The notes: generated by a model from the letters alone, not told the origin. Shown: positions 7,436-29,113, counted from the first letter of the stretch. The stretch: 64,000 nt of DNA from Candidatus Sumerlaeota bacterium (GCA_016928995.1 JAFGJS010000054.1:86536-150535); one strand, 5' to 3'. Program-made: numbers and translations.

Positions 7436-8887
7436 ATGGGCAAGGATGACGCCAAAATTTTAGAAGACGCGGCAGGCGGCGAATATAAATGGGGGTTCGT
7501 GACGGATATCGAGTCGGACACGTTTCCGCCGGGGCTGAATGAGGACGTGGTTCGGGCGCTTTCGGCCAAGAAAAAGGAGCCGGAGTGGCTGACCGAATGG
7601 CGGCTCAAGGCGCTGCGGCATTGGCAAACGCTGACCGAACCGAAGTGGGGCTTCGTGAATTATCCTGAAATCGACTATCAGGCGATCAGTTATTATTCCG
7701 CGCCAAAATCGGAAAAAGACGGCCCCAAGAGCCTGGACGACATCGATCCGAAACTCCGCGAGACTTACGAGAAACTCGGCATTCCGCTGGAAGAGCAGTT
7801 GAAGTTGGCCGGGGTGGCCGTGGACGCGGTGTTCGACAGCGTGTCAGTGGCCACGACGTTCAAAAAGGAATTGGAAAAGCGCGGCATCATCTTCTGCTCA
7901 TTCAGCGAGGCGGTGCAGCGGCACCCCGAACTGGTGCGGAAGTACCTGGGCAGCGTGGTGCCGATGACGGACAACTACTTCGCCGCGCTGAATTCGGCGG
8001 TGTTCTCCGATGGATCGTTCTGCTACGTGCCGAAGGGCGTGCGTTGCCCGATGGAGCTCAGCACGTACTTCCGCATCAACGCGGCCATGACCGGACAGTT
8101 CGAGCGCACGCTGTTGATCGCCGACGAAGACGCGTACGTGAGCTATCTCGAAGGTTGCACGGCGCCGATGCGCGACGAGAACCAGCTGCACGCCGCCGTG
8201 GTGGAACTCATCGCGATGGACAACGCGGAGATCAAGTACAGCACGGTGCAGAACTGGTATCCGGGCGACGACGACGGCAAGGGCGGCATCTATAATTTCG
8301 TCACCAAGCGCGCGCTTTGCGCGGGCGTGAACAGCAAAATCAGCTGGACGCAAGTGGAGACCGGTTCGCTGATCACGTGGAAATATCCCTCGTGCATCCT
8401 GAAGGGCGACGGCTCCAGCGGCGAGTTTTACAGCGTGGCGCTCTCCAGCAAGAAGCAGCAGGCCGACACCGGTTCGAAGATGATCCACATCGGCAAAAAC
8501 ACCAAGAGCACGATCATCAGCAAGGGCATCAGCGCGAAAAACGGCAACAACACGTATCGCGGGCTGGTGCAGATCGGCAAGAACGCGGAAAACGCGCGAA
8601 ACTACAGCCAGTGCGACTCGATGTTGATGGGCGATCAGTGCGGCGCGCACACCTTCCCGTACATCGACGTGCGCAACCGGTCGGCGAAGATGGAGCATGA
8701 AGCGAGCACCAGCAAGATCGGCGAGGATCAGATTTTTTATTGTCAGCAGCGCGGCATCAAGGAAGAGGACGCGATCAACATGATCGTCAACGGCTTCTGT
8801 AAGGAAGTCTTCAACGAGCTGCCGATGGAGTTCGCCGTGGAAGCGCAGAAACTGCTGGCGATCAGTCTCGAAGGCAGCGTGGGATGA
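7436..8887 (+). CDS. sufB: Fe-S cluster assembly protein SufB
   Basis: 483 aa. Full-length SufB, including the C-terminal ...[13 protein letters not shown]... region. Confidence 0.9.
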
Positions 8888-8998: not shown

Positions 8999-9071
8999 CG
9001 TGAATATTGCAGTTCTATTAAGTTCTGAAATATTGAAATATCGCACTACTTTTAATACGGAGCATATCAAC

Positions 9072-9836
<765 letters not shown>

Positions 9837-9888: not shown

Positions 9889-10005
9889 GGAGATATGGGG
9901 ATGTTGGGGATGTGGAGATAAAAAATTTGCGGTTGGTGATAGTTGGAGAACTTGAAGCTAGTTCTATTGTTTATCTCCAATATCCCCTGTATCCCCCTAT
10001 CTCCT
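9889..10005. repeat. short TIR-bounded element (sufC-sufD spacer)
   Basis: GGAGATATGGGGATGTTGGGGATGTGGAGAT ... ATCTCCAATATCCCCTGTATCCCCCTATCTCC inverted arms. The GCGCAAGG direct repeats lie upstream of the element. Confidence 0.5.
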
Positions 10006-10059
10006 TTATCCAGCTGTGCTGCGTCGTTGCACAAAGCAATAAATAAAAGGTTAAACGAA

Positions 10060-11376
10060 ATGTCAAAAATGGAAGTCGCAAAATATATCGAGCCTTACGT
10101 CGAGGCGTATCGGCGGCTGGCCGCGGAACCGGAACTCTGGCTGAAGGAGATGCGCGAAGCGGCGATCACTCAATTCGCGCTGATTGGTTTTCCGGAGACG
10201 CGCCAGGAAAATTGGCGTCATACGGAGCTGAGCCGCCTGACCGGTTACACTTTCGCCACGGCGCGGGATTATCCGCTGGATGACGCGGACATCGCTGAAA
10301 TTCAGTCGCATTATCACGACATCGACGGCGGCGCGCGGCTGGTGTTCGTCAACGGCTGGCTGCATGACGAACTTTCCACGCTCGGACGCCTGCCGGACGC
10401 GGTTGTAATCAGCAGTTTGAGCAACGCGCGCGAGGCGCTGGGCGCTGAAATCGACGAACACCTGGCGAATTACGCCTGCTACGACCGGCACGCCTTCATC
10501 CAACTGAACACGGCGTTCATGACCGATGGATTGTTCCTGAAAATTCCGGATGGCGTGGAGCTGGAGCCGCCGGTTCAGTTGATTTTCTACAGCAAGAGCG
10601 AGGATGCGCCGTCGATCAATCATCCCCGCAATCTGATCATCCTTGGAAAGAGCGCCAGGGCGACGGTTGTCGAAACATACATCGGCTCGCCAGACGCCGT
10701 TTATCTGGCGAATCCCGTGACGGAGATCGACCTCGCGGAAAACGCCGCCCTGGATCATTATAAGATTCAGCTCGAGTCCGGCGCGGCGTTTCATATGGCG
10801 ACGATTCAAGCGCGTCAGGCGCGCGACAGCCGCATGCGTCAGACGGCGATCAACAATGGCGCATTGATCATGCGCAACGACCTCGGTTCGGTGATGATCG
10901 GCGAAGGCGGCGACTGCAAGTTCTTCGGGCTTTATCTGCCCCAGGGCGAGCAGCACATGGACACGCATTCCCGGTTGGATCACGCCGCGCCGCATTGCAC
11001 GAGCACCGAGCTCTATAAGGGCGTGCTGGACGACCGGGCTACTGGCGTCTTCAACGGCAAGATCGACGTGCGGCGCGGCGCGCAGAAAACCGACGCCGTG
11101 CAAAGCAATCATGCGCTGTTGCTGACCGACGAGGCGCGCGTGAATGCGCGGCCGCAATTGGAGATCTACGCCGACGACGTGAAATGCACGCATGGCGCCA
11201 CGGCGGGCGAGCCGGACACGGATGCGTTGTATTATTTGCAGACCAGAGGCATTGACAAGGAAACGGCAAAGGCGATGATTATCGCGGCGTTTGCGTCCGA
11301 AATCATCGAGGAAATCGCGGTCGATGCAGTCCGCGAGCGCATCCAGCAAATTGTGTGGGACCGCTTTTTGCCATAA
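10060..11376 (+). CDS. sufD: Fe-S cluster assembly protein SufD
   Basis: C-terminal EIYADDVKCTHGATAG motif. The ATG at 10060 (MSKMEVAKY) was verified in sequence. The longer ORF start at 9943 would run through the repeat element. Confidence 0.85.
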   Translation: MSKMEVAKYIEPYVEAYRRLAAEPELWLKEMREAAITQFALIGFPETRQENWRHTELSRLTGYTFATARDYPLDDADIAEIQSHYHDIDGGARLVFVNGWLHDELSTLGRLPDAVVISSLSNAREALGAEIDEHLANYACYDRHAFIQLNTAFMTDGLFLKIPDGVELEPPVQLIFYSKSEDAPSINHPRNLIILGKSARATVVETYIGSPDAVYLANPVTEIDLAENAALDHYKIQLESGAAFHMATIQARQARDSRMRQTAINNGALIMRNDLGSVMIGEGGDCKFFGLYLPQGEQHMDTHSRLDHAAPHCTSTELYKGVLDDRATGVFNGKIDVRRGAQKTDAVQSNHALLLTDEARVNARPQLEIYADDVKCTHGATAGEPDTDALYYLQTRGIDKETAKAMIIAAFASEIIEEIAVDAVRERIQQIVWDRFLP

Positions 11377-11771: not shown

Positions 11772-13037
11772 ATGAGCACTGCGAATATTTACAAAATTAT
11801 GGACGACCCGAATTCGCTCGATATCGACGTGGAGCGGGTGCGGCGCGATTTCCCCATGCTTTCGCAACGGGTGCACGGCGTGCCGTTAGTGTATCTGGAC
11901 AATGCGGCATCCACGCATAAGCCGACGCTGGTGATCGACGCGATCCGGCGGGTGTATGAGCAGGATTACTCGAACATTCATCGCGGCGTGCACGAGCTCA
12001 GCCAGCGCCTGACCATGCAATACGAGGAGGCGCGGGAAAAGATCCGCGTGTTTCTCAACGCCCGCAGCCGCGCGGAGATCGTCTTCACTTATGGCACGAC
12101 GGACAGCATCAACCTTGTGGCGCAGACCTTCGGCCGGGCCAACATCGGTAAGGGCGATGAGATTCTGATTTCTGAAATGGAGCATCACAGCAATATCGTG
12201 CCGTGGCAGCTGCTGTGCGAACAAACCGGCGCGACGCTGAAGGTGATTCCCTTCAACGACCAGGGCAACCTGGCGATGAGCGACGTGGAGGCGTTGCTCA
12301 GCGAACGCACGAAGCTCGTCGCGCTCGTGCATGTGTCCAACGCCCTCGGCACGATCAATCCCATCGGTCCGATCATCAAACTGGCCCACGACGCCGGCGC
12401 GAAAGTGCTGGTGGACGGCGCGCAGGCCGTGGCGCACATGAAGACAGACGTGCAGAAATCGGACGTGGATTTCTACGCCTTTTCCGGGCATAAGGTTTTC
12501 GGGCCGACCGGCATCGGCGTGCTGTACGGCAAGGAAGACCTGCTTGAGGCGATGCCGCCCTGGCGCGGCGGCGGCGATATGATCCGCACCGTCACGTTCG
12601 AAAAAACCACCTACGCCGATCTGCCATACAAGTTCGAAGCGGGCACGCCGAACATCGCCGGCGGCATCGGTCTGGGGGCGGCCATCGACTATGTGCACGA
12701 CATTGGCCTGAAGCACATCAATCATTATGAGAATTCGCTGCTGGCATACATGACGCGTCAATTGCTCAACGTGGAATGGCTGAAGATCATCGGCAACGCG
12801 CCGTGCAAGTCCGGCGCGATTTCATTCATGATCGAAGGCGTGCACCATAACGATCTGGGCCAGTATATCGACCACCTGGGCGTGGCGATCCGCACCGGCC
12901 ATCATTGCGCGCAGCCGGTCATGCAGCATTACGGCGTCACCGGCACGGCGCGCGCTTCGCTGGCGTTTTACAACAATACCCAGGACATTGATCGCTTCAT
13001 CGAAGCCCTCGAGAAGGCGAAGAAATTCCTTCTATAG
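11772..13037 (+). CDS. sufS: cysteine desulfurase SufS (class V PLP aminotransferase)
   Basis: 421 aa. PLP-lysine motif FYAFSGHKVFGPTGIGVLYGK and the RTGHHCAQP region. Confidence 0.9.
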   Translation: MSTANIYKIMDDPNSLDIDVERVRRDFPMLSQRVHGVPLVYLDNAASTHKPTLVIDAIRRVYEQDYSNIHRGVHELSQRLTMQYEEAREKIRVFLNARSRAEIVFTYGTTDSINLVAQTFGRANIGKGDEILISEMEHHSNIVPWQLLCEQTGATLKVIPFNDQGNLAMSDVEALLSERTKLVALVHVSNALGTINPIGPIIKLAHDAGAKVLVDGAQAVAHMKTDVQKSDVDFYAFSGHKVFGPTGIGVLYGKEDLLEAMPPWRGGGDMIRTVTFEKTTYADLPYKFEAGTPNIAGGIGLGAAIDYVHDIGLKHINHYENSLLAYMTRQLLNVEWLKIIGNAPCKSGAISFMIEGVHHNDLGQYIDHLGVAIRTGHHCAQPVMQHYGVTGTARASLAFYNNTQDIDRFIEALEKAKKFLL

Positions 13038-13159
13038 TATCTATCAAAGTTCTTGCGTATTGGTCAGCGGTCACAGCCGAGGGCGGCTGTGCCACATTTT
13101 TCAGAAAGCGCTATTTCTTTCGAGAACCGTTCCAGGTCTTACGGGGCAAACAGAAGCTG

Positions 13160-16100
13160 CTATGACTTCGGTGTTCGGCCGAAAATCACGGGCGAAGAAT
13201 CGTCACGGCCTGCGGGGGAGAAAGAGGGCGCATCGGAGGATTGGATTTTGACCGCCATGTCGCGGATCATACGCGGCAGTTCGATCGTCATGCGCCCTCC
13301 GCGGCATTCCGCGCCCCTCGTTTCGATCTTGCCGTAATACCATGTGTCCCAAAATTCAAGGGTGTAATGACCGTCGCGCAACTCGCTGTCGAAAATGAAT
13401 TCGGCGTTGTCCACGGGCGGATTGAACAGCATGGCGTCTTGATCTCCGGTGAACATCCAGGGCGCTTCATAGAACTTGTCCACGATGTCTTTATTATGGA
13501 ACCATAGGAAAGCCGTATGCTGGCCCGTGCGGCTCATGCAGTAAATGCCATTGGCGTTGTTCACGGGCTGGCGATACATGTACTTCCATTCCTGTTCGCG
13601 CAGGTCGACGCCCTCGATATAGTCGGCGAAAATTTTCAATTGCTCGTCGAGTTTTTCCTGGAAAATCAAATTCCACCACCACGGCATCGGCGCGCCGGAG
13701 GCCGGCATGTGCCAGACGATCCAGGGGCCGTTGTGGAGTTGCAGTTTGAGATGCGGGATCGATGTGCCTTTGGGGTGTCCGCCGTACTCCTCGATGATCC
13801 TGGGCTTGTCGACGCTGGACAGGAAGTAAAGGCGTTTGAACATGACGCTGCTGAAGTCGTCGACCGTATAGGCCGCGGCCTGGGTGTATGTGATGTCGTC
13901 CAGTTGCCAGGTTTGAATATCGCCCGCGTCTTTCACGAATTCGGTGGAGATCAGATGGCGGTCCTGGTCGATTTCGCGGAGATATCCGGCCATTTCCTTG
14001 TGCCAGTTGGCGCGGATGTTTGGATTCGGATTGGTCGTGTCGTTCTCGATCCACAGCGTGTAGCCGAAAAGATTAGGATAAGCGCCCCAGCGCGCGGCCA
14101 CATAACGATGGCGCCGTTTGAAGAGATCGCGCGTTTTCTGGTCGGTCATCGCTTCGGTGTAATGCTTGAGCCACCCGCCGTTTTCAACGCGATAGGGATT
14201 GTTGGTCCACTGGTCGTCCCAGCGTTGGGTGAACGGACCGTGGTGGTTGAGGGCGAGCTCGATCATGATGTCTTTCCGCAGCGCCGCCTCCATCAGATAA
14301 TCCAGTTCCCAGGCGCGTTGCATGCTGTAGCGTCCGACGCCGTGGAAGGTCGGGTATTCCTTGTACCATTCCAGGCCGCACCACCACGCGGTCATCCAGA
14401 CGCGCCCCATGTCGATCTTGTTGCGCTGCATCTGCTGAAAGAAATCGTCGTAAAGATAGGTGCCAGTTTTGGGGTTCAGATAAGTGAAATTTTTCAGGTC
14501 GTAGAACGTGCGGTTGTCGCGCGGCCAGCAAAGATTGATCGCCATCGGGTAGTAAAACTCGCCGTTGCTGAACGCGAAGTATTCGGGGTGCTCCGGATCG
14601 GACTTCAGATAACCGCGAGCATACTCCGAGGGATGAACATCCAGCTCGCAGTATGAGGTGTCGAGCGCGTCGCCATACCGGTCGCTGCCCGTAAGGCGCC
14701 AGCGATATTGCCCTGGCTCGTCCGGCATGAATCGCACAGCCCACTGCGGCGTTCCGATCGCCCGCAAGACTTCGGCGTTGTTGCGAAAGTTGCGGACGTA
14801 GTCCTGCTTATAAAACGCAGGGAGGCGGGTCGTCTTTCCGGACGGCGCGATAAACTCCGCCATCAGGTCGATTTCATCCGGATCGAAAGGATTGTCGTAT
14901 TCGCGATTGAGCGTGAAGTTCGCTTCGTACACCTGATTGCACAGCGCGTCGTCCGGGGCGTCCAGGGAGGCGAGCGTGAAATTCCCCAACGGAGCTTCGC
15001 CTCCAGGGGTGGCGCTCATCAGCGAGGCGCCCTGCACATAGCTATCTCCGGTGTAAACCTTCACTCCGATCTCGCGGACACGCCGCAATTGCCATCGCCC
15101 CCAGACGTCTTCTTGATGCCGGCCTCTCCATGGTTTGGACAGCGAAGCGTGCATATGCAGCGTCGATCCCTTCAGGTGGCTTGAATCGGGTTCGGCTTGA
15201 AACCATTCTCCGTCGTTCACCTTGATGTAGATCATCGGGCGGATCGACTTCATCGAATTCGGGGGAATGCCTTCAAGGAACAGCTCAAGATTCACATATT
15301 GATAGGCGAACCAATCTTCTTCGATCTTGATTTCATTCGCTACGGCGGAGCTGTCGAGACGGATCTCCCGCTGAGAGAGCTGCTCCGGCAATCCCATCCA
15401 GATCGGGATGACGATCGTGGCGATCCCCAGCAGCAGCAGGCCAATACAGAACGGCAGCACGGTCCATGCCGGTCCGAGCGAGGATTCATTCGCATAGGCG
15501 CCGTGGAATCCCTGCTCATGTTTGCGTCCGAACAACGTGGAGAGTCCGTGCGGCGTTTTCATCCATTGGAACGGCGCCCAGAAAAACTGAAGGAATCCGC
15601 GCCATGCGCCCCAGCTCATCAAGAGCCAGTAAATCGGCATGAACAAACCGGGAAACAGCATGCGGTAATACTGGCGCCGCAAGCCGGCGATGAGATGAAT
15701 CAGCACAAAGAAGCCATTGAGCAGCATAAGCAACAGCGCGCCGGCGAAAAGCCATGCCGTCCAGGGCCGGCTGGGATCGAACAACTCCCATTCCCAGGTC
15801 AGCCATGCCCCGATCACCACCCAACAAATGGGCATGACGATCATCGAGTACACCTGGCCGCCGATCACCGCGAGCAGCAGGAGAAATTCCCATGGTCCGA
15901 GCGTCAGCATCGACTTCAGCGGTGAACGGGTATGGATCAGCAGCGTCTGCCAGTAGCCCTTGATCCAGCGCGAACGCTGGCGCAGCCATGGACGCAGCTT
16001 GCAGCAGGCTTCTTCCCACGTCGTGGAATCCAGAATGCGGATGTCGCGGCGGGCGAGGCTTAACCGAATGCCCAGATCACAATCCTCGGTCACATTGTAC

Positions 16101-16897
16101 GCGTCCCAGCCCCCCAGCGTCTTCAGGGCTGAAGTGCGAAAATGATTCGATGTGCCACCAAGCGGGATCGGCGAGCGCAGGGCGTGCAGACCGGGAAGAT
16201 ACAGGTCGAACCACGCGGAGTATTCCAGCGTGAACCACTTCGCCAGCAGATTCTGATGGCCGTTGTAATAATTCAGCTTGGCCTGCAGGCAGTCCACCTT
16301 GTCCGGAAGTTTCCGGAAGGCGCAGATGGCTTTTTTCAGCTGATCGGGCTCCGGCCGGTCTTCGGCGTCGAAGATGACAAGAAACTCGCCGCGTGCGCGC
16401 TCCAGGCCGTAATTGCAGGCGCGCGGTTTGGTTTTGGGATAGCCTTCCGGCACGATGACGATTTCGATGCTTGGCGGCAGCTGCTGCGCCCGCGCGGCGC
16501 GCAAGGTGGCTTCGTCGTCCTGCTCCAACAGCAATTTGATGTCCAACTTGTCCTGCGGATAGTCCAGGCGCTTCATGGCCTGTACGAAATCGCCGACGAC
16601 TTCCGGCTCGCGATACATCGGCGCCAGGATGGTGTAAACCGGCAGCGTGGACTCGTCGAGCGCGGCGAGCTCCTCCGCCGAACACGAGACGGTGAAGCGA
16701 CGGAACTGACCGATGAAGACGGCGATAACTTTAATCAGGATGATAATGGAAAAAAACGTGAGGGTGGTGATGTTCCAAAATTGGATAAACGCTTTCAGGC
16801 TCAGGCTTGCCTGTACGACAAGTCCAATGATGATGCCGATGAAAACACTACGCTGCCAGGGCCGCCAAGGATGTTTGGCTTCGTCGAAAAATTTCAC
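13160..16897 (-). CDS. processive family-2 glycosyltransferase (cellulose-synthase-like) fused to a C-terminal glycoside-hydrolase-like (DUF5060/DUF4038-GH5/GH140-type) domain
   Basis: 1245 aa, GTG start. The N-terminal part has GT2 motifs YTILAPMYRE, FDAED (DxD), VTEDCDLGIRL (TED) and QRSRW (QxxRW), then several hydrophobic TM helices. The last ~700 aa are hydrophilic with Ig-like plus TIM-barrel hydrolase-like sequence. Confidence 0.75.
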   Translation of the reverse strand: MKFFDEAKHPWRPWQRSVFIGIIIGLVVQASLSLKAFIQFWNITTLTFFSIIILIKVIAVFIGQFRRFTVSCSAEELAALDESTLPVYTILAPMYREPEVVGDFVQAMKRLDYPQDKLDIKLLLEQDDEATLRAARAQQLPPSIEIVIVPEGYPKTKPRACNYGLERARGEFLVIFDAEDRPEPDQLKKAICAFRKLPDKVDCLQAKLNYYNGHQNLLAKWFTLEYSAWFDLYLPGLHALRSPIPLGGTSNHFRTSALKTLGGWDAYNVTEDCDLGIRLSLARRDIRILDSTTWEEACCKLRPWLRQRSRWIKGYWQTLLIHTRSPLKSMLTLGPWEFLLLLAVIGGQVYSMIVMPICWVVIGAWLTWEWELFDPSRPWTAWLFAGALLLMLLNGFFVLIHLIAGLRRQYYRMLFPGLFMPIYWLLMSWGAWRGFLQFFWAPFQWMKTPHGLSTLFGRKHEQGFHGAYANESSLGPAWTVLPFCIGLLLLGIATIVIPIWMGLPEQLSQREIRLDSSAVANEIKIEEDWFAYQYVNLELFLEGIPPNSMKSIRPMIYIKVNDGEWFQAEPDSSHLKGSTLHMHASLSKPWRGRHQEDVWGRWQLRRVREIGVKVYTGDSYVQGASLMSATPGGEAPLGNFTLASLDAPDDALCNQVYEANFTLNREYDNPFDPDEIDLMAEFIAPSGKTTRLPAFYKQDYVRNFRNNAEVLRAIGTPQWAVRFMPDEPGQYRWRLTGSDRYGDALDTSYCELDVHPSEYARGYLKSDPEHPEYFAFSNGEFYYPMAINLCWPRDNRTFYDLKNFTYLNPKTGTYLYDDFFQQMQRNKIDMGRVWMTAWWCGLEWYKEYPTFHGVGRYSMQRAWELDYLMEAALRKDIMIELALNHHGPFTQRWDDQWTNNPYRVENGGWLKHYTEAMTDQKTRDLFKRRHRYVAARWGAYPNLFGYTLWIENDTTNPNPNIRANWHKEMAGYLREIDQDRHLISTEFVKDAGDIQTWQLDDITYTQAAAYTVDDFSSVMFKRLYFLSSVDKPRIIEEYGGHPKGTSIPHLKLQLHNGPWIVWHMPASGAPMPWWWNLIFQEKLDEQLKIFADYIEGVDLREQEWKYMYRQPVNNANGIYCMSRTGQHTAFLWFHNKDIVDKFYEAPWMFTGDQDAMLFNPPVDNAEFIFDSELRDGHYTLEFWDTWYYGKIETRGAECRGGRMTIELPRMIRDMAVKIQSSDAPSFSPAGRDDSSPVIFGRTPKS

Positions 16898-16928: not shown

Positions 16929-17005
16929 ACCCGTTTTTAACAATTAACGGGGCGGCTGTCAAGAGGCCGTATTCACGGGCAAAGATGAAAAGACAGCCGC
17001 CCCGT
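16929..17005. promoter_or_regulatory. long structured element in divergent promoter region between GT2-hydrolase fusion gene and GT4 gene
   Basis: Perfect 15-bp inverted repeat AACGGGGCGGCTGTC (16945-16959) / GACAGCCGCCCCGTT (16991-17005) with a 31-nt loop. A CCCGTT/AACGGG mini-stem lies just upstream. Confidence 0.35.
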
Positions 17006-17160
17006 TCCTCGCGTAAGGTACCATACTTAACTCAGCTTATCGTCAAAAAGTTTGGCCAGCGGTAAAAAAAACATGATTTATTTTTCAGGTTGCGCACATT
17101 GCCCGGTTTTGTTTCGCTGGAGCCTGATTGCGGCGAAATTGACGGAGGATCCGAGCAAGC

Positions 17161-18261
17161 GTGAAAACGGCCCTGATTCAGGATTGGCTGAACGGCATGC
17201 GCGGCGGGGAAAAGGTGCTGGAGGAGCTCATCGCGCTCTATCCCGGCGCGGATGTGTTTACCTTGTTTTACGAGCCGGACCGCATCAGCGCAACGATCAA
17301 CGCGCAACGGGTGATCGTCTCGCCGTTGCAGCGTCTGCCGTTGGCCCGCACGCATTACCGCTATTACCTCCCGCTGTTTCCCTGGGGCGTGGAGCGTTTT
17401 GATCTGCGCGGTTACGACCTGATTATCTCTTCGAGCCACTGCGCGGCCAAGGGTGTGCGCGTGCCTAGAGGCATTCCGCATCTCTGCTATTGCCATTCGC
17501 CGATGCGCTATGTCTGGGATATGTACGATGCCTATTTTGGCGGGCGCAATCGCTGGAAGCCGGGCGGTTTGGTTATGCCGCTGTTTCGCGGCCGCTTGCA
17601 GCGCTGGGACGTGCGCACGGCCCGGTCGGTCGATCAATTCATTTGCAACAGCCGGCATATCGCGAACAAAATCAAACAATTCTACGGCCGCGAGGCCATT
17701 GTCTGCAATCCGCCGGTGGATCTGGAGAAATTCTCCATCGCCCCGGACGGCCCGGAGGATTATTTTCTGGCGGTCTCCGCGCTCGTACCGTATAAACGGA
17801 TCGATCTGGCCGTGGCGGCCTGCAACCGGCTGCAGCGGCGGTTGATCGTGGCCGGACGCGGGCCGGAGGCGCAACGGATCCGGGCGCTCGCCGGACCGAC
17901 CGTCGAGGTGCGCGACTGGGTGAGCGACGAAGAGCTGGTGCGGCTGTATCAACGCTGCCAGGCCTTCCTCATGCCCGGTCCGGAGGACTTCGGCATCACA
18001 CCCCTGGAGGCCATGGCTTGCGGACGGCCGGTGATCGCCTTGGCCGAAGGCGGCGCGCTGGAGACCGTCGTCGCTGGCAAGACCGGCGAATTTCATAAGG
18101 AGCAGACAACGGAGAGTTTGCTGGAAGTTCTGAAAGCGTTCGATTCCGGAAAATACGATCCGGACGCCATCCGCGCCCACGCCATGACTTTCGGCCAGGA
18201 GCGCTTCAGGGAAGAGATGCGGCAGATCATCGATCAATGCCTCAAGAATACGACGCGATGA
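17161..18261 (+). CDS. glycosyltransferase family 4 (GT-B)
   Basis: 366 aa, GTG start. GT4 C-terminal motif EDFGITPLEAMACGRPVIAL. Confidence 0.75.
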   Translation: MKTALIQDWLNGMRGGEKVLEELIALYPGADVFTLFYEPDRISATINAQRVIVSPLQRLPLARTHYRYYLPLFPWGVERFDLRGYDLIISSSHCAAKGVRVPRGIPHLCYCHSPMRYVWDMYDAYFGGRNRWKPGGLVMPLFRGRLQRWDVRTARSVDQFICNSRHIANKIKQFYGREAIVCNPPVDLEKFSIAPDGPEDYFLAVSALVPYKRIDLAVAACNRLQRRLIVAGRGPEAQRIRALAGPTVEVRDWVSDEELVRLYQRCQAFLMPGPEDFGITPLEAMACGRPVIALAEGGALETVVAGKTGEFHKEQTTESLLEVLKAFDSGKYDPDAIRAHAMTFGQERFREEMRQIIDQCLKNTTR

Positions 18262-18337
18262 AACATATCAAAAATCAAAAAAACTCGGAACTTCTTGCAG
18301 CAGATTCCTGCATAAATCTGGGCGGTGTATATATTCA

Positions 18338-19732
18338 ATGGCTTTTTCTCTTCGAACGATGACTAAAGCGACAAGCATGCCGGGGAAACTGATGCAATGG
18401 CGAGCTGCGTCTGACAATCACGCAGAGGAGGCGCCTGCTGGCTTGCGTTTGATGCATCCGTGTGAAAACTGGGCCGCGATGGGTTTGTTCGCGGTCGTCG
18501 CGCTGGCGCTGAATTCCTTTTATCTGCGTTACAGTCTTCCTCTGGTCGAAGACACGGAGGTGTTGTTTGGCGCGGCGCTGAATGGGCAGTTTGAGTTTTT
18601 TAAGGAATATGCGGGATATATTGCCATCCCGCCCAGAGTATTTTGTCTGATCTGCCAGGTCTTGCCCGTTATGCTGATCCCGAAGGCTTATGTCTTCATC
18701 GCCACAATGTGCAACGCCTTGTGCGCGATGTCGTTTTACCTGCAAATGGCGCATTGGATGCGTTGCTCCCGCCGTTCCGCCGTGGCGTTTTCCTTGCTGT
18801 ACCTGTTCATGTCGAGCGGATGCATCACGTCCTACAACCTGATGTACTGCATCTGGCCGTTATCGCTGGCCGCGATCAATCTTTCGCTGATCTTGCCTCA
18901 ACTCAAAGGCTGGCGCTGGTGGGCGCTGGCGGCGCTGATCGTCTTCGCCGGAATATCGTCGAATCCCCTTTGCGTCATTCTCCCCGCCGGCGCGGCGGTG
19001 TATGCGGTCATGGAGTGCGCCAGGGCAAACTGGAAAAACGCGGCAAGGTATGCTTTTTTCGCCGTGATTCAAATCGTGGTTTTATTGGCCATCATTGAAT
19101 CGCCGCCCGTGACGGTCCTGACCTATACGGATGTCGTCAAAAGGGCTGTTGATGCGATGTATCTGATCCTGGCGCGCGTCATCTCTCCCGTTTCCGGCGC
19201 CATCCATCCGCTGGATTTACAGTTCGTGTTTTTAACGTCCGGTTTTGCGCTGGGCTTCCTGTTTGTGATGCTCTCCAAGGATCGCAGCCGCCACATACAG
19301 TATTACATTTTTGCTGCCATCATCTGCGTGTTCACGTTTCTGCTATGCCTCACCAACCGGTACAATATCTATTATCCGGAAATGATGCATGATGCGGCGC
19401 GGGGGAACAGGTATGTCTATATTCAGTTTTTTTTGTTTCTCGAGCTGCTCTGGATCGCGATCCTGCTGATTCGAAAATCCTTGCCGCGATACGCCGTTCT
19501 TGCTTTATTTGTCGCGCACCTTTGCGGTCCGATTTTGTATTATCCGGCTTTGGTGCAAACGTATGGCGAGCTGGATTATAACGGCGGGGACGATTGGATC
19601 GACCGCAGCAACAGATATAACGACGTGCTTGAAAGTTACGTCCGGCGGATCAATCAAAACGGCGAAGCGAGCGAATTTTACTTGTCGGGATACTGGCGGG
19701 ATCGAGTCTATAAATTGGTGAAGAAAGACTGA
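18338..19732 (+). CDS. polytopic membrane protein of polysaccharide locus (possible GT-C/polymerase-like)
   Basis: 464 aa with at least 10 hydrophobic segments. Sits between GT4 and the priming transferase. No catalytic motif was recognised. Confidence 0.5.
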   Translation: MAFSLRTMTKATSMPGKLMQWRAASDNHAEEAPAGLRLMHPCENWAAMGLFAVVALALNSFYLRYSLPLVEDTEVLFGAALNGQFEFFKEYAGYIAIPPRVFCLICQVLPVMLIPKAYVFIATMCNALCAMSFYLQMAHWMRCSRRSAVAFSLLYLFMSSGCITSYNLMYCIWPLSLAAINLSLILPQLKGWRWWALAALIVFAGISSNPLCVILPAGAAVYAVMECARANWKNAARYAFFAVIQIVVLLAIIESPPVTVLTYTDVVKRAVDAMYLILARVISPVSGAIHPLDLQFVFLTSGFALGFLFVMLSKDRSRHIQYYIFAAIICVFTFLLCLTNRYNIYYPEMMHDAARGNRYVYIQFFLFLELLWIAILLIRKSLPRYAVLALFVAHLCGPILYYPALVQTYGELDYNGGDDWIDRSNRYNDVLESYVRRINQNGEASEFYLSGYWRDRVYKLVKKD

Positions 19733-19735
19733 CGC

Positions 19736-21166
19736 ATGCATCCGCCTGTTCGACATATGGCCAATGTGAAGGCCGTGCAGCACCGGCTGCTGCAGCGGCG
19801 CTTCATTCTGGATTGCGTCATGATTCTCGCCGGCATGCTGTTCGCTTACGCCTTGCGGTTTTATGTGTTGCATTGGCTTAACATCCTGCCCGTCGAAAAG
19901 GGCTACGATCCGCGCGATTACGCCTGGCTGCTGGCCTATGCGCTGCCGGTGATGGTGATGTCTTACAGCTGGACCGGCATGTACGGCTTGCGCGATCCGG
20001 TGTTCAACTACGACATCGGTAAGCGCGTGATTCGCGGAACGCTGCTTGGCGTCGCGCTGGTTCTGACGATCAACTTCTTCTTTCGCGAGGCGGAATACGC
20101 CCGTCCGGTGTTCATGACGGCTCCGTTCAGCGTGATCGGATTCGTCTTCGCCGGGCGGCTCTATTTGCGGCAGTATGTGGACCGCTTGCGCGCTGAACGC
20201 CGCATCGGCGACATCGGCACGCTGATCGTCGGCGCGGGCGACTCCGCACGGCTGCTGATCCGCAAGATCCACGAGCATCCCGAATGCGGCCTTGAGGTTG
20301 GCGGCGCCGTGGCCGCGCAAACCAGCGACGCTCCGGACGAAGTGGAAGGAGTCCCGGTGCTGGGGACGATCAGCGACATGATGCAGATCGTCCGGGAAAA
20401 GAAAATCCGGCGCGTGATTTTCGCCCAGCCGAATCTGACCAATAAGGAAATCTTCGACCTGATGGCGGAATTGGAAAAAGAACTGGTCGATGCGCGCTTC
20501 GTGCCGAATCTGCTGGAGAGCCACTTGACGGATTGTTCGTTCGAGAACCTGGACGGCCTGCCGCTTTTCGGCCTGAAGGATACTCCGTTGCAAGGAATGA
20601 ACCTGGTGGTGAAAAATCTCTTCGACAAAATCGTCAGTTCGATCATGCTGCTGCTGGGCGCGCCGTTCTACGCCTTGATCGCCCTGGCTGTCTGGCTCGA
20701 CTCGGGAAGGCCGCTGTTTTATAAACAGCGCCGCCTGGGCATGGACGGCCGGTCGTACAACATGTATAAATTTCGCTCCATGCGGCTCAACGCGGAGCAG
20801 AACGGACCGGGGTGGACGCGGCCGGACGACGACCGGGTGACGCGGATCGGGCGATTTCTGCGGCGATGGAATTTGGATGAGTGGCCGCAGCTGATCAACG
20901 TCTGGCGCGGCGATATGAGTCTGGTCGGGCCTCGTCCCGAGCGTCCGGAATGGGCGCAAAAATTCAAGGAGGAGTTTCCGCATTACATGATGCGCCACAC
21001 CGTGAAAAGCGGGATGACGGGCTGGGCGCAGGTGAACGGGCTGCGCGGCGACACAGATCTTCAAGCTCGACTTGACGCGGACCTCTATTATATAGAGAAT
21101 TGGACGCTATGGCTTGATATTAAGATTTTGCTGATGACCATGCGAGCGACGAAAAACGCGTATTGA
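19736..21166 (+). CDS. undecaprenyl-phosphate sugar phosphotransferase (WbaP/EpsL-type bacterial sugar transferase)
   Basis: 476 aa. N-terminal TM helices and a C-terminal bacterial sugar-transferase domain (...DEWPQLINVWRGDMSLVGPRPERP...KSGMTGWAQVNG). Confidence 0.85.
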   Translation: MHPPVRHMANVKAVQHRLLQRRFILDCVMILAGMLFAYALRFYVLHWLNILPVEKGYDPRDYAWLLAYALPVMVMSYSWTGMYGLRDPVFNYDIGKRVIRGTLLGVALVLTINFFFREAEYARPVFMTAPFSVIGFVFAGRLYLRQYVDRLRAERRIGDIGTLIVGAGDSARLLIRKIHEHPECGLEVGGAVAAQTSDAPDEVEGVPVLGTISDMMQIVREKKIRRVIFAQPNLTNKEIFDLMAELEKELVDARFVPNLLESHLTDCSFENLDGLPLFGLKDTPLQGMNLVVKNLFDKIVSSIMLLLGAPFYALIALAVWLDSGRPLFYKQRRLGMDGRSYNMYKFRSMRLNAEQNGPGWTRPDDDRVTRIGRFLRRWNLDEWPQLINVWRGDMSLVGPRPERPEWAQKFKEEFPHYMMRHTVKSGMTGWAQVNGLRGDTDLQARLDADLYYIENWTLWLDIKILLMTMRATKNAY

Positions 21167-25436: not shown

Positions 25437-25633
25437 AAAACGGCCCTCCTCCAACCGCAAAAGGAGCGGTATTCCATTGAGAATGCGCCCGGAAGTCAAG
25501 TCCAAATTTAGCAAGTTCGCCGCGATTCGGTCAATTTTTCGTTTTTTTGGCTGAAAGATCCGCTGCGTTGTATTTTACTGATTGTAAGATCAGCAGATCT
25601 CGCGATCCATCCTTTTTTACCAGGAATCAAACG

Positions 25634-28600
25634 ATGCATCCGATATGGCGTTGTGGTTCTTTTATATTCATTTTATGGGCGTTAGGCTTCGATGCAGGTT
25701 CTTTTCGAATGCTTCATGCCGCCACGCCGCGGCTTGACAGCGACGTGCCGGTCCAGGAGACGATCCTCGATGACGATCAATATGGCCATCGCGCCGTAGC
25801 CGAAGTGAATGGCGACGGCTATAATGATATTGTAGGGCTCAATTACGGCAGCGGAAACGGCGATCTCGTCTGGTATCGCTATCCGGACTGGACCCGTTTC
25901 GTCATCGCGCAACCGAGTCTGTATGCGGATTACCAGTGGTATCGCTCGGACGATCTTGCGGTCGCGGACATCGACAACGATGGCGACGACGACATTGCCG
26001 GGCGGGTCGGTCCGAACAGCGACGCCGCGGGTCCGATCTGCTGGTGGGAGAATCCGCTGCCGTCGGGCGATCCTTCGCTGCCGGGCTGGACGCGGCATGA
26101 CATCGGCATCACGGATTACAACAAGGACCTGGGCCTGGCGGATTATAATATGGATGGCAAGATCGATGTGGCCGGACGGGAAAACGCGGAAACCCACGTC
26201 TTCATTCAGGGCGGCACGCCGCTGGAATGGACGCTGGTGATGCAAACCAGCCACTACCACCACGAAGGCATGGCCATCGGCGACTTGGACAATGACGGCG
26301 ACATCGACCTCGCGCTCAATGGCTTCTGGTTCGAGAATCCGCATCCGGATCCGATCACCAACACCTGGGTCTTTCACGATGTCGATGCTAAGTGGTATAC
26401 GCAAAGCGGCTATGGCTGGCAGGACAATAACAGCAACATCGAGGTGGCGGACGTCAACGGCGACGGCAAGGCGGAGTTCCTGATCTCGCAATCCGAGCTG
26501 CCGGGATTCCCACTTTCGATCTACTCGGCGGGCGATCCGATAAACGGCCCCTGGACGGAATTTCAACTGGAGCCGGTGGCGGATTATTATCAGACGCTGA
26601 AGGCCGCGGATTTCGACAACGACGGCGACACGGACATCTTCTCCGGCGAATTTCCGCGTTATCCCGATGCGGCGCCATGGAATGTGTATATCTACCTGAA
26701 TGAAGGCAACTCCGGGAGTTGGACCAGGCAGCTGCTGACGCAGGATGGCGTGTATCACGGCTCCATCGGCGACGTGGGCAGCGACGGCGACATCGACCTG
26801 ATCGGCACGCGCAGCTACGATACAGCGCCGCTGTTTCTCTGGGAAAACCTGACCGCCGACACGAGCGTGCATTCGCTGGATAAATGGACCTACATTGAAG
26901 TGGACAACTCGCGCCAGAGCTGGGGGGACTTCGACACGCCGAGTTGGGTGCGGTATTTCGGCCTGGCGTTCGGCGACGTGGACGGCGACGGGAATAAGGA
27001 CATCATCTCCGGCCGCTATTGGTATCGCAACCCCGGCGGCGGCATGACCGGCGTCTGGACGCGCACGGACCTGGGTTTGAACTGCGACGCCAGCTTGTTC
27101 GTCGATGTGGATGACGACGCGTTCGCCGATCTGATCGCTTCGGCCGGCACGACGATCTATTGGCTCGAAGCGCAGGACGCCAACGGGACGTTATGGACGC
27201 CCACGGCCATTGACACCGCTTTTCCCGGAACCGATCACGTCAACACGCAGGGCTATGAAATCGTGGAACTGATCGGCGGGGGCAAGCCGGAATTATTGCT
27301 TCACGCCGATGGTGTCTATATGTACCAGATCCCCGCGAATCCCTCGTCAACGGCTTGGACGCGCACGAAGATCGTCTCCAATTCGAATGGCGAGGCGATC
27401 GGCATCGGCGACATCGACGGCGACGGCTGGACGGACGTCGCCGTGGCTCATTCTCCCGCTGAATCCACAACCTGCCGCATCAAATGGTGCAAGCATCCCG
27501 GCGCAAGCGGCGGCGCATGGGCGGAGCATTTCATCGGCTACTTCGACGGATTGTATCCTGATCGAGTGGAAGTTGGAGACTTGAATGGCGACGGCCGCCC
27601 GGACATCGCGGTCAGCGAAGAGGGGCAAGTGGAGCAGCCGATTTATCAGACCGCCTGGTTTGAAGCTCCGGCCGATCCCACACAGGACAACTGGACGCGC
27701 CGCACGATCGTCACGCAGCACACGACCAACGCGATGGACGCGGCGGACATGGACAACGACGGAGATTTGGATTTAATCACCGGCGAGCATCGCGGCACGG
27801 AGAAGGTGGCCATCTGGGCCAGCGACAATGCGGGCAATTTCACCGAGTATGTGGTGCCGGAAGGCCGCGAAAGTCATCTTGGCGCGCGCGCCGTGGACCT
27901 GGACGGCGACGGCGATTATGAGATCGTCAGCATCGCCTGGGATGATTATCAATACCTGCATCTCTGGCGCAACGACAACGTCGGGATCATCGTCCCGCCG
28001 CCGGCTGAAAACCGCCCGCCTAGTGTCAGCGCGGGTTCGGACCGGTTGATCGTGGCGCCGGAGAATTCAACAACTTTAAACGGCTCGGTTTTCGATGACG
28101 GACTGCCCGCCACAGGGACGTTGACGGTTCAATGGAGCCAGGTCAGCGGGCCGGGAAATGTGACTTTCGGATCGCCCGATACCCCTGGCACCACCGCGGT
28201 TTTCAGCATTTCGGGCGCTTATGTCGTGCAATTGAGCGCGAGCGATGGAGCGTTAAGCGCATCCGCTCATGCGACGGTGTCGTTCCTGCCAGCCAGCGCC
28301 AATCAAGTTTTGCATTGGCGGTTTGATGACGTCAGCGGGGCCAGCGCGACCGATTCGAGTCCATTCGGCAATCATGGCACAGTGTCCGGCGCGACCTGGA
28401 CAGACGGTTATTACGGCGGCGCGTTGACTTTCAACGGCTCAAGCGATTACGTCGCCATCTCCGATATCGCCATCAACGGCGATTTCCCCGGCTGCACGGC
28501 GGGTCAGACCGGCGACTTCACCCTTTGCGCCTGGATCAAGCGCGGCAGCAGTGGTTCTCGTCATCCGGTTGTTTCCAAACAGGGCGATCTGGGCAGTGCG

Positions 28601-29113
28601 GCGCGCGGTTTCGTGTTTGAAATCACCGACGCCGATTATCTGAAGATTGAATTATTCAACGGCGACGACAGCGACCTTAATCGCACGGACGTGTTCAGCT
28701 CACAGCAGATTCCTACCGGCATCTGGACGCATGTCGCCGTGACTTATGAATATATCAGCGACGGCGCGTCAAAAGTCCGGTTGTACATCAACGGCGTGAA
28801 TGACGGCGCCAGCGACATGGCGCATGGTCCGTTGCAGCAGAATTCCAGAGCGTTTGAGGCAGGGCGCTACTATTGGTCAAACAGCTACAGCGCTTTCTGG
28901 CACGGCGAAATCGACGATGTGCGGGTGTATAACGTCGCGCTGACCGCGACCGAGATCGCCCGCATCCTCATCGGGCCGCTCGTTCGTCCGGATCTGCAGG
29001 ATCATCTGCTGGGAGTGGATACGATGACCAGCCAGCAGCAGACCGAGGCTGAAATAAACGGCGATTCGCAACTGGATATCGGCGACTTGCTGGAATGGTC
29101 GCGCTTCGATTAA
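25634..29113 (+). CDS. secreted multi-domain protein: FG-GAP/VCBS-type beta-propeller repeats + PKD/Ig-like domain + LamG/concanavalin-like lectin domain + C-terminal dockerin-like Ca-binding segment
   Basis: N-terminal signal peptide (MHPIWRCGSFIFILWALGF). More than 15 D-x-D/N-x-D-G-D repeats (DIDNDGDDDI, DLDNDGDIDL, DVNGDGKAEF, DFDNDGDTDI...). PKD-like segment TLTVQWSQVSGPGNVTF. LamG-like segment (FGNHGTVSGATWTDGYYGGALTFNGSSDYV...VRLYINGV...VRVYNVALTATEI). Tail EINGDSQLDIGDLLEW. Confidence 0.7.
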   Translation: MHPIWRCGSFIFILWALGFDAGSFRMLHAATPRLDSDVPVQETILDDDQYGHRAVAEVNGDGYNDIVGLNYGSGNGDLVWYRYPDWTRFVIAQPSLYADYQWYRSDDLAVADIDNDGDDDIAGRVGPNSDAAGPICWWENPLPSGDPSLPGWTRHDIGITDYNKDLGLADYNMDGKIDVAGRENAETHVFIQGGTPLEWTLVMQTSHYHHEGMAIGDLDNDGDIDLALNGFWFENPHPDPITNTWVFHDVDAKWYTQSGYGWQDNNSNIEVADVNGDGKAEFLISQSELPGFPLSIYSAGDPINGPWTEFQLEPVADYYQTLKAADFDNDGDTDIFSGEFPRYPDAAPWNVYIYLNEGNSGSWTRQLLTQDGVYHGSIGDVGSDGDIDLIGTRSYDTAPLFLWENLTADTSVHSLDKWTYIEVDNSRQSWGDFDTPSWVRYFGLAFGDVDGDGNKDIISGRYWYRNPGGGMTGVWTRTDLGLNCDASLFVDVDDDAFADLIASAGTTIYWLEAQDANGTLWTPTAIDTAFPGTDHVNTQGYEIVELIGGGKPELLLHADGVYMYQIPANPSSTAWTRTKIVSNSNGEAIGIGDIDGDGWTDVAVAHSPAESTTCRIKWCKHPGASGGAWAEHFIGYFDGLYPDRVEVGDLNGDGRPDIAVSEEGQVEQPIYQTAWFEAPADPTQDNWTRRTIVTQHTTNAMDAADMDNDGDLDLITGEHRGTEKVAIWASDNAGNFTEYVVPEGRESHLGARAVDLDGDGDYEIVSIAWDDYQYLHLWRNDNVGIIVPPPAENRPPSVSAGSDRLIVAPENSTTLNGSVFDDGLPATGTLTVQWSQVSGPGNVTFGSPDTPGTTAVFSISGAYVVQLSASDGALSASAHATVSFLPASANQVLHWRFDDVSGASATDSSPFGNHGTVSGATWTDGYYGGALTFNGSSDYVAISDIAINGDFPGCTAGQTGDFTLCAWIKRGSSGSRHPVVSKQGDLGSAARGFVFEITDADYLKIELFNGDDSDLNRTDVFSSQQIPTGIWTHVAVTYEYISDGASKVRLYINGVNDGASDMAHGPLQQNSRAFEAGRYYWSNSYSAFWHGEIDDVRVYNVALTATEIARILIGPLVRPDLQDHLLGVDTMTSQQQTEAEINGDSQLDIGDLLEWSRFD

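Follow-up and report, generated by a model that had tools for sequence, protein, structure and literature searches.

In the exopolysaccharide (EPS) systems BcsA/BcsZ, PgaC/PgaB, Psl/PslG, Pel/PelA, and Alg8/AlgL, a GT2-type processive synthase is paired with a dedicated extracytoplasmic cleaving enzyme. The cleaving enzymes are separate proteins of families GH8, GH153, GH39, GH166, and PL5, and the systems also include an outer-membrane porin/TPR component and usually a receptor for cyclic di-GMP (c-di-GMP). Here, we describe a gene of Candidatus Sumerlaeota bacterium that encodes a synthase and a glycosidase-like module as a single polypeptide. The gene (positions 13160..16897, minus strand) lies in a stretch of 64,000 nucleotides (GCA_016928995.1 JAFGJS010000054.1:86536-150535), which was analyzed at its full length and is referred to as the window, and neither the porin/TPR component nor the receptor is conserved beside it. 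We consider it probable that the product is a self-contained XagB-type synthase whose tethered extracytoplasmic glycosidase cuts or transfers its own beta-linked product.

A precedent for such a design exists in the NdvB-type cyclic beta-1,3-glucan synthases, which combine a periplasmic clan GH-A glycosidase (GH17) and a GT2 domain in one membrane protein (PMC10237404). In these "Orphan BcsA-like" enzymes of Pseudomonas and Bradyrhizobium, the GH17 domain has been proposed to cut and cyclize beta-1,3-glucan (PMC10237404). Like NdvB, the window protein is one inner-membrane polypeptide with a GT2 domain and a clan GH-A TIM barrel, and both are encoded by orphan genes outside a classical export operon. 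The original prediction, made from the sequence of the window, that this architecture had not been described was therefore too strong. Within this already described general design, the fused family is distinct from NdvB in four respects. The NdvB glycosidase is a GH17 domain and N-terminal, whereas the window protein, in which no GH17 match was found, carries a DUF5060 plus GH5-like module at its C terminus, attached via an extra transmembrane (TM) helix; the domain order and the hydrolase family thus both differ. The GT2 subfamily differs as well, that of the window protein being XagB-type, and NdvB occurs in Proteobacteria, whereas the fused family is found in Sumerlaeota and the Planctomycetes-Verrucomicrobia-Chlamydiae (PVC) group. 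Literature searches on DUF5060, ManDH5, and GT2 plus GH5 domains returned no paper describing a GT2-GH5 fusion or ManDH5.

The Xanthomonas Xag system (xagABCD) resembles the window gene in its synthase and in the kind of hydrolase encoded nearby. The homologue from Xanthomonas cucurbitae, a 635-residue MshEN plus GT2 protein, is 45% identical to the window protein over residues 22-453, a GT2-TM core of ~430 residues with the terminal W-E-K-T-x-H-G included, and the same locus contains a gene for a clan GH-A hydrolase from GH113, a mannanase family. The two differ in that XagB has an N-terminal, c-di-GMP-binding MshEN domain, with its hydrolase and its 340- and 452-residue partners encoded by separate genes, whereas the window protein has no MshEN domain (no PF05157 match) and is fused to a hydrolase of another family. 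The X. cucurbitae locus (L047, 3049-9579) also encodes a second GT2; its 340- and 452-residue proteins belong to no Pfam family, and its GH113 protein (PF22612, E 8e-32) is encoded two genes downstream of the synthase. Searches of the window ORFs (open reading frames) with jackhmmer profiles of the XagA-, XagC-, and GH113-like partners (the 340-residue, 452-residue, and GH113 proteins) found none of them, and no second GT2 core or GH5-like copy is present in the 64-kb window.

The C-terminal module resembles ManDH5, a GH5 beta-D-mannanase of Dictyoglomus thermophilum (PDB 9gmj, 9gpa, 9gpc-g), in its succession of DUF5060 sandwich, barrel, and C-terminal region and in an aligned pair of glutamates. 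ManDH5 is a soluble, stand-alone protein of 568 residues with the motifs WNE and QTHIY, whereas the window protein has WIE and QAAAY, and the fused module has an extra juxtamembrane beta-sandwich. The synthase of the N4 glycan receptor in E. coli, NfrB/NfrA/YbcH, is comparable in combining an MshEN-regulated GT2 with a putative TIM-barrel protein, YbcH (DUF4434). Membership of the GT2 half in the NfrB group, whose proposed product, a polymer of N-acetylmannosamine, would have explained altered C2-binding residues, was considered and rejected, as the identity is 22%; NfrB falls in another subfamily, and its proposed product is not transferable to the window protein. In E. coli K-12, ybcH (L088 2092-2982) was seen to encode a full-length DUF4434 protein (E 1.5e-69) in the nfrBA operon, which makes this a further GT2 synthase operon with a putative glycosidase-like partner.

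The window ORF runs from a GTG start through 1245 codons without interruption, and its G+C content equals that of the surrounding DNA. An identical protein is held at NCBI as "glycosyltransferase [Candidatus Sumerlaeota bacterium]" on a 169-kb contig. When residues 505-1245 were searched against 1.84 billion cluster representatives (50% identity), 3087 relatives were recovered at E<=1e-3 and 964 at E<=1e-30. Fused forms of 1.2 to 1.3 thousand residues accounted for ~40 of the best 150 cluster representatives, and many other relatives were stand-alone proteins of ~750-830 residues that span the whole C-terminal module. In total, ~100 clusters (90% identity) share the fused length and order of domains. 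Their sources are uncultured bacteria of Sumerlaeota, Planctomycetota, Kiritimatiellia, and Victivallales/Lentisphaeria, plus one "Deltaproteobacteria" metagenome-assembled genome (MAG), and the sequences were drawn from independent NCBI, JGI, ENA, and Logan assemblies. Ninety fused homologues (30-52% identity, 1212-1336 residues) align end to end, and each half contains invariant residues. We conclude that the fusion is real and conserved; its recurrence in ~100 homologues from several phyla excludes an assembly artifact and settles the caveat, attached to the original prediction, that a frameshift might have joined two genes.

A structural model of residues 1-1200 was computed with AlphaFold2 (AF2) from the 90-sequence alignment. 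It reached a mean predicted local distance difference test (pLDDT) score of 93 and a predicted template modeling (pTM) score of 0.70 and was confident across the junction of synthase and hydrolase. In the N-terminal half, all four motifs of processive GT2 enzymes that had been predicted are present, at residues 87-96 (YTILAPMYRE), 176-180 (FDAED), 269-279 (VTEDCDLGIRL), and 307-311 (QRSRW). GT2 families match as well, with three overlapping Pfam hits across residues 88-390 (PF13641, E 1.4e-20; PF13632, E 4.2e-20; PF00535, E 8.8e-8), and hydrophobic helices were found at about residues 13-63 and 335-500. Foldseek matched the model to BcsA (9b8v, 4p00, 4hg6; E 1e-15 to 1e-13) and to hyaluronan synthases, the whole BcsA and hyaluronan synthase set spanning E 1e-15 to 1e-12.

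The synthase half begins with a TM hairpin (TM1 and TM2; residues 13-63, 16709..16861, minus strand like all features of the gene), recognized by hydropathy and by AF2 helices at 13-32 and 34-63; the N terminus carries a net positive charge over the 90 homologues. The GT-A (GT2) catalytic domain follows (residues 66-300, 15998..16702), assigned by Pfam and by Foldseek to BcsA and hyaluronan synthases and predicted to be cytoplasmic. It contains the DxD motif FDAED (16358-16372) and the TED motif VTEDCDLGIRL (16061-16093); D177, E179, D180, E271, and D272 are invariant in the 90 homologues, and T270 is kept in at least 90% of them. An amphipathic interface helix (residues 301-322 in the AF2 model, 15932..15997; hydrophobic moment 1.37) bears QRSRW (15965-15979), with Q307, R308, and W311 invariant, and leads to TM3 and TM4 (residues 335-407, 15677..15895; AF2 helices 335-368 and 380-407), which by hydropathy are putative translocation-channel helices. 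A weakly hydrophobic helix (residues 411-440) and a W-x-K-T-x-H-G loop (residues 445-451; together 15545..15667) come next, delimited by hydropathy and conservation, and W424, W445, K447, T448, and H450 are invariant. We interpret the helix as a second interface helix and the loop as a gating-loop-like motif; presumably, they are the counterparts of the interface helix and FxVTxK gating loop that precede TM7 in BcsA. The GT2 profile, the DxD, TED, and QxxRW motifs, and the interface and TM bundle of membrane-embedded processive GT2 synthases are thus all found in the fused protein.

A scan of species-representative genomes showed residues ~5-455 to be 41-51% identical to a widespread GT2 subfamily, with members in Xanthomonas, Devosia, Nocardioides, Paenibacillus, Mucilaginibacter, Chloroflexota, Patescibacteria, and others. 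Several members, two of them fused, bear the JGI name "glycosyltransferase XagB." By sequence, we class residues 1-455 as an XagB-type GT2 core. In a neighbor-joining tree of GT2 cores, used as a rough guide, most fused cores grouped together and apart from most unfused ones, with split and unfused forms from the PVC group at the boundary between the two. Other arrangements of the core were also observed. Relatives P0103-P0120 join an N-terminal FHA domain to the GT2 core in proteins of ~700 residues, and P0107, P0108, and P0118 carry six tandem MshEN repeats plus GT2 in ~1300 residues, a six-fold array that is unusual; in both kinds, these domains replace the C-terminal hydrolase. The GT2 core, found with FHA, MshEN, or GH5-like domains, is evidently a module that is joined to varied accessories.

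The synthase core is connected to the C-terminal module by an extra TM helix (residues 476-500, 15398..15472) with the highest hydropathy of the protein (2.56). Beyond it lie ~740 hydrophilic residues, close to the ~700 originally predicted, which AF2 folds into two beta-sandwiches, a (beta/alpha)8 barrel, and a C-terminal beta-sandwich. The juxtamembrane sandwich (residues 518-632 by AF2 strands, 15002..15346) belongs to no Pfam family and is also found at the N terminus of stand-alone homologues of ~770 residues. The second is a DUF5060 Ig-like sandwich (residues 642-755, 14633..14974), which aligns with ManDH5 residues 27-128 and matches PF16586 (E 1e-11; residues 655-736, 45.3 bits versus a cut-off of 27.2). 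The barrel (residues 774-1100, 13598..14578) was assigned as GH5-like from phmmer and Foldseek matches to ManDH5. The C-terminal sandwich (residues 1105-1198 by AF2 strands, 13304..13585) precedes a short low-complexity tail; W1183 and T1185 are conserved in it, and stand-alone homologues have the same sandwich.

ManDH5 is the closest solved relative of this module, both by phmmer (9gmj/9gpc, E 1.5e-49 over 480 residues) and by Foldseek against the PDB, where 9gpg, 9gpa, 9gmj, 9gpe, and 9gpc gave E 4e-39, a target-normalized TM-score of 0.85, and 24-25% identity. The next Foldseek matches were GH5 endo-mannanases (1rh9, 4qp0, 9m20, and 8gf3, all GH5 mannanases) and an exo-mannosidase. The prediction of an Ig-like module followed by a clan GH-A barrel therefore stands, with DUF5060 and the AF2 barrel identified. 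Its further identification as DUF4038/GH140 does not: PF13204 (DUF4038) had no match in the window protein at E<=1 and was present in one distant relative only (P0206), and we rejected this identity in favor of a GH5-like barrel related to ManDH5.

Two glutamates, as expected for a barrel of this kind, are conserved at the predicted active site. E951, the candidate acid/base in WIEND (14045-14047), aligns with ManDH5 E303, the residue altered in deposited E303Q complexes with manno-oligosaccharides, and E1037, the candidate nucleophile in IEEYGG (13787-13789), aligns with the Glu of ManDH5 LVGEFG. Both are invariant in 90/90 fused sequences and in 79/79 stand-alone DUF5060-GH5 relatives. The same full conservation across the 90 fused sequences holds for Y1010, W1059, W1073, and W1074, and 89 of these sequences have H1055; Y1010, W1059, and W1073 are similarly conserved in fused and stand-alone relatives. 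Since the pair of glutamates is invariant at 30-52% identity, a pseudo-enzyme is not expected, and the GH5-like domain is very probably catalytic, with a remodeled sugar-binding site. GT2 enzymes invert, turning alpha-linked nucleotide sugars into beta-linkages, and clan GH-A enzymes are retaining glycosidases that cut beta-glycosidic bonds; in their chemistry, the two halves therefore fit each other.

A functional connection between the halves is also indicated by genomes in which they are separate genes. At four split loci, an XagB-like core of ~500-585 residues that ends at WxKTxHG is encoded one to two genes from exported DUF5060-GH5-like proteins; these loci are from an unclassified MAG (L016), a Schlesneria MAG (L020), Lentisphaeria (L086), and a JGI metagenome contig with two DUF5060-GH5-like paralogues (L091). 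The occurrence of split and fused forms constitutes Rosetta-stone evidence that the two halves work together. GH113, like GH5, belongs to clan GH-A, and its characterized members are beta-mannanases or beta-mannosidases. A GH113 gene was found in the flanks (~6 kb) of an XagB-like gene at 9 of 80 loci, two of them in Xanthomonas, and profile searches placed GH113-linked XagB loci in Gammaproteobacteria, Alphaproteobacteria, and Chloroflexota; in the literature, we found no paper noting GH113 genes beside XagB-like synthases. Given the split operons and the GH113 gene of the Xanthomonas locus, the fusion is a variant of an existing two-gene system. Of the distinct pathway with built-in processing that had been proposed, processing of the protein's own product is retained as the best reading, and the idea that the pathway is wholly distinct is not.

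PA14-domain proteins were noted next to split or stand-alone DUF5060-GH5-like genes at L016 (2498-4741), L086 (10666-13017), L089 (9313-11847), L001 (5277-6584), and L006 (5075-5893). One of them has a weak GDSL/SGNH match. These PA14/GDSL neighbors may be acyl-modifying or carbohydrate-binding accessories.

In the mechanism that we propose, the synthase half would polymerize a beta-linked glycan from a nucleotide sugar and thread it across the inner membrane, and TM helix 476-500 would take the protein chain to the extracytoplasmic side. There, the tethered module, with its putative retaining pair of E951 as acid/base and E1037 as nucleophile, would act on the polymer of its own synthase at the outer face of the inner membrane. 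One outcome would be cleavage, giving release and chain-length control and yielding oligosaccharides or short chains; the other would be transglycosylation of the nascent polymer. In XagB-type loci without the fusion, this role would fall to the GH113 or DUF5060-GH5 protein encoded by a gene of its own. The lack of conserved export partners suggests that the product is a periplasmic or diffusible glycan rather than a long exported fiber. The topology, the action on the protein's own product, and the identity of the polymer are all parts of the mechanism that we infer.

Several observations weigh against this reading, most of them at the active site. In clan GH-A, the sugar in the -1 subsite is contacted at O2 and O3 by two residues, the Asn of NE and the His of HxY. 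That Asn, which directly precedes the acid/base, is replaced in most of the fused clade (Ile in 53, Gly in 19, Ser in 7, and Asn in 9 of 90), the window protein having Ile950; the stand-alone relatives have Asn in 63 and Ser in 15 of 79, and ManDH5 has Asn. In place of the HxY His, all 90 fused sequences have Ala, Asn, Pro, or Gly (Ala in the window protein), whereas 69/79 stand-alone relatives have the His. PF00150 (GH5) did not match the window protein even at E<=1 and gave weak or faint matches in some homologues. The domain is clearly homologous to a GH5 enzyme yet lacks these two conserved residues of the class. Their loss may mean that the domain is slow, acts on a differently substituted sugar, or is not a simple hydrolase. 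In addition, the topology was derived from hydropathy, loop charge, and analogy, which limits that claim, and the X. cucurbitae locus was equated with the published xag locus from its genus, its architecture, and a JGI orthology (KO) label.

The possibility that replacement of Asn and His marks all synthase-linked hydrolases was examined and rejected, as both paralogues at L091 keep the NE motif; the Asn is absent in the split partners at L016, L020, and L086.

The same two replacements could reflect either a differently substituted sugar or a shifted balance of hydrolysis and transglycosylation, and the latter bears on the strongest of the alternatives. Here, the tethered GH5-like domain would be mainly a transglycosylase or cyclase that converts the nascent chain into cyclic or branched oligosaccharides or grafts it onto an envelope glycan. 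The architecture is analogous to that of NdvB, the retaining pair is intact and retaining enzymes are able to transglycosylate, the two -1-subsite residues are replaced specifically in the fused clade, and an orphan context free of export genes fits a periplasmic oligosaccharide. We nevertheless regard a predominantly transferring enzyme as rather unlikely, since ManDH5, the closest characterized relative, is a hydrolase and some split-operon paralogues retain the canonical NE.

An improbable alternative is that the C-terminal module is a degenerate, essentially non-catalytic domain that binds or guides carbohydrate and escorts the nascent chain through the periplasm in the manner of BcsB. The loss of the Asn and His in most fused members, the missing PF00150 match, and the three beta-sandwiches that flank the barrel would all suit such an escort, but the invariance of both glutamates in every fused sequence, together with that of Y1010, W1059, W1073, and W1074 and the near-invariance of H1055, argues for a working active site.

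The C-terminal module is very likely extracytoplasmic, as the original prediction had held, and this placement is well, if indirectly, supported by loop charge, hydropathy, and the export signals of relatives. Over the 90 homologues, the TM3-TM4 loop is neutral, the charge after TM4 is +2.4, that of the WxKTxHG loop is +2.0, and the segment after the last TM helix has a net charge of -1.8. Helix 420-438 has a mean hydropathy of 0.63 versus 1.5-2.6 for the five clear TM helices and contains a conserved Arg, features that suggest an interface helix rather than a membrane span. The Xanthomonas homologue stops 13 residues past WEKTTHG, and unfused XagB-type proteins generally end ~13 residues past the motif; because these cores end there, helix 476-500 is the element gained in the fusion, and in the split-gene hydrolases a signal peptide or anchor takes its place. 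Signal-peptide-like N termini are present in 66 of the 74 Met-starting stand-alone relatives of the module, the split-operon partners have a signal peptide, a lipobox (…AIGC), or an N-terminal anchor, and some fused homologues (P0060, P0068, P0076) end in a CBM9 domain. The loop charges, the polar helix, the export signals, and CBM9 together lead to the extracytoplasmic assignment.

It is very improbable that the GH5-like module is instead cytoplasmic, with helix 420-440 a true span and with intracellular substrates, as in oligosaccharide recycling or priming. If every hydrophobic helix beyond the GT domain is simply counted, four spans could result, but the low hydropathy and conserved Arg of this helix, the net positive loops on either side of it, the net negative segment after the last TM helix, and the exported or CBM9-bearing homologues all speak against it. 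An origin of the ORF by chimeric assembly, or by a frameshift that joined two neighboring genes, can be dismissed, for although split two-gene versions occur in some genomes, the architecture is continuous in 90 aligned sequences of 1212-1336 residues from independent assemblies, the linker TM helix is conserved across 30-52% divergence, and AF2 is confident across the junction.

Within the preferred model of a synthase that processes its own product, a beta-mannan-like backbone is a tentative candidate for the polymer, possible rather than probable. Pointers to mannan are the fold matches to ManDH5 and GH5 mannanases, the GH113 genes in XagB loci, the matches to PF26410 ("GH5_mannosidase") in relatives, and the PDB sequence that the GT2 half matches best, that of the mannosyltransferase PcManGT (E 8e-8 versus 5e-5 for BcsA). 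Furthermore, xag-dependent Xanthomonas biofilm has been associated with dispersal by the beta-1,4-mannanase ManA (PMC3528676). On the other side, the top NCBIfam matches of the GT2 half, weak and below threshold, are the PgaC/IcaA and CelA models, that is, models of poly-N-acetylglucosamine and cellulose synthases; identity to ManDH5 is just 24-28%, and GH5 is polyspecific. At this identity and with the motif changes, the substrate specificity of ManDH5 is not transferable. A more specific and doubtful proposal is a one-gene pathway of beta-mannan type, possibly modified at C2, in which the ManDH5-like domain cuts or cyclizes the polymer into defined periplasmic or secreted oligosaccharides. 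If this were true, the XagB-type half would be the first bacterial synthase of beta-mannan or a mannan-like polymer, and the proposal would also account for the Xag polysaccharide and its dispersal by ManA.

In the window, the fused gene is convergent with a suf operon and divergent from a small glycan cluster, with housekeeping genes around. The cluster (17161-21166, plus strand) consists of a GT4 glycosyltransferase (17161-18261), a 464-residue ORF of no Pfam family (18338-19732), and an initiating sugar transferase with Bac_transf and CoA_binding_3 domains (19736-21166), and it is not conserved at homologous loci. Across seven loci of fused homologues, no neighbor is common to the window or to one another; the only recurrence is of lineage-specific GDSL-like and GFO/IDH/MocA genes, the GDSL-like genes flanking the fused genes at two related loci. 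No outer-membrane TPR/porin, co-polymerase, PilZ, or MshEN (c-di-GMP receptor) gene was found beside the fused gene, which behaves as a self-sufficient orphan. On the other side, two SufB/SufD-type paralogues (7436-8887 and 9943-11376, plus strand) flank sufC (9000-9836) and are followed by sufS (11772-13037), so that the Fe-S assembly operon is complete in the window.

Two inverted repeats border the fused gene. The intergenic region shared with the divergent GT4 gene holds an inverted repeat of two perfectly matching 15-nt arms (AACGGGGCGGCTGTC / GACAGCCGCCCCGTT) that are 31 nt apart (16946-17006), ~50 nt upstream of the GTG start; it has no Rfam match and could be a 5' untranslated region element, an operator, or a terminator remnant. 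On the other flank, where sufS and the fused gene converge, their stops are separated by a GC-rich hairpin (CACAGCCG-AGGG-CGGCTGTG) with a T-run after it (13072-13091). This hairpin is likely a bidirectional terminator, and its stem resembles the upstream repeat (…CGGCTGT…). Rfam and promoter/terminator scans around the fused gene gave nothing above chance. Elsewhere in the window, 25547-29113 (plus strand) encodes a protein of 1188 residues with six FG-GAP/VCBS repeats, a K319L-like PKD domain, and Laminin_G_3 (ConA-like), which is probably a large secreted or surface protein.

If the model of a synthase with a tethered, product-processing glycosidase holds, the fused gene would be a minimal portable unit, a single gene, free of conserved partners, for both the synthesis of a beta-linked glycan and the control of its length. 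Such a unit would be attractive for studying how synthesis and cleavage are coupled at the channel exit and for producing defined oligosaccharides. The analysis also newly connects three observations, namely, the widespread XagB-type synthases, the mannanase-type clan GH-A enzymes encoded beside or fused to them, and the dispersal of xag-dependent biofilm by a beta-1,4-mannanase, which, joined, give a concrete hypothesis for the chemistry of Xag-type polysaccharides. The fused family also draws attention to an unstudied glycan, secreted or of the envelope, in the Sumerlaeota and PVC-group bacteria that carry it.

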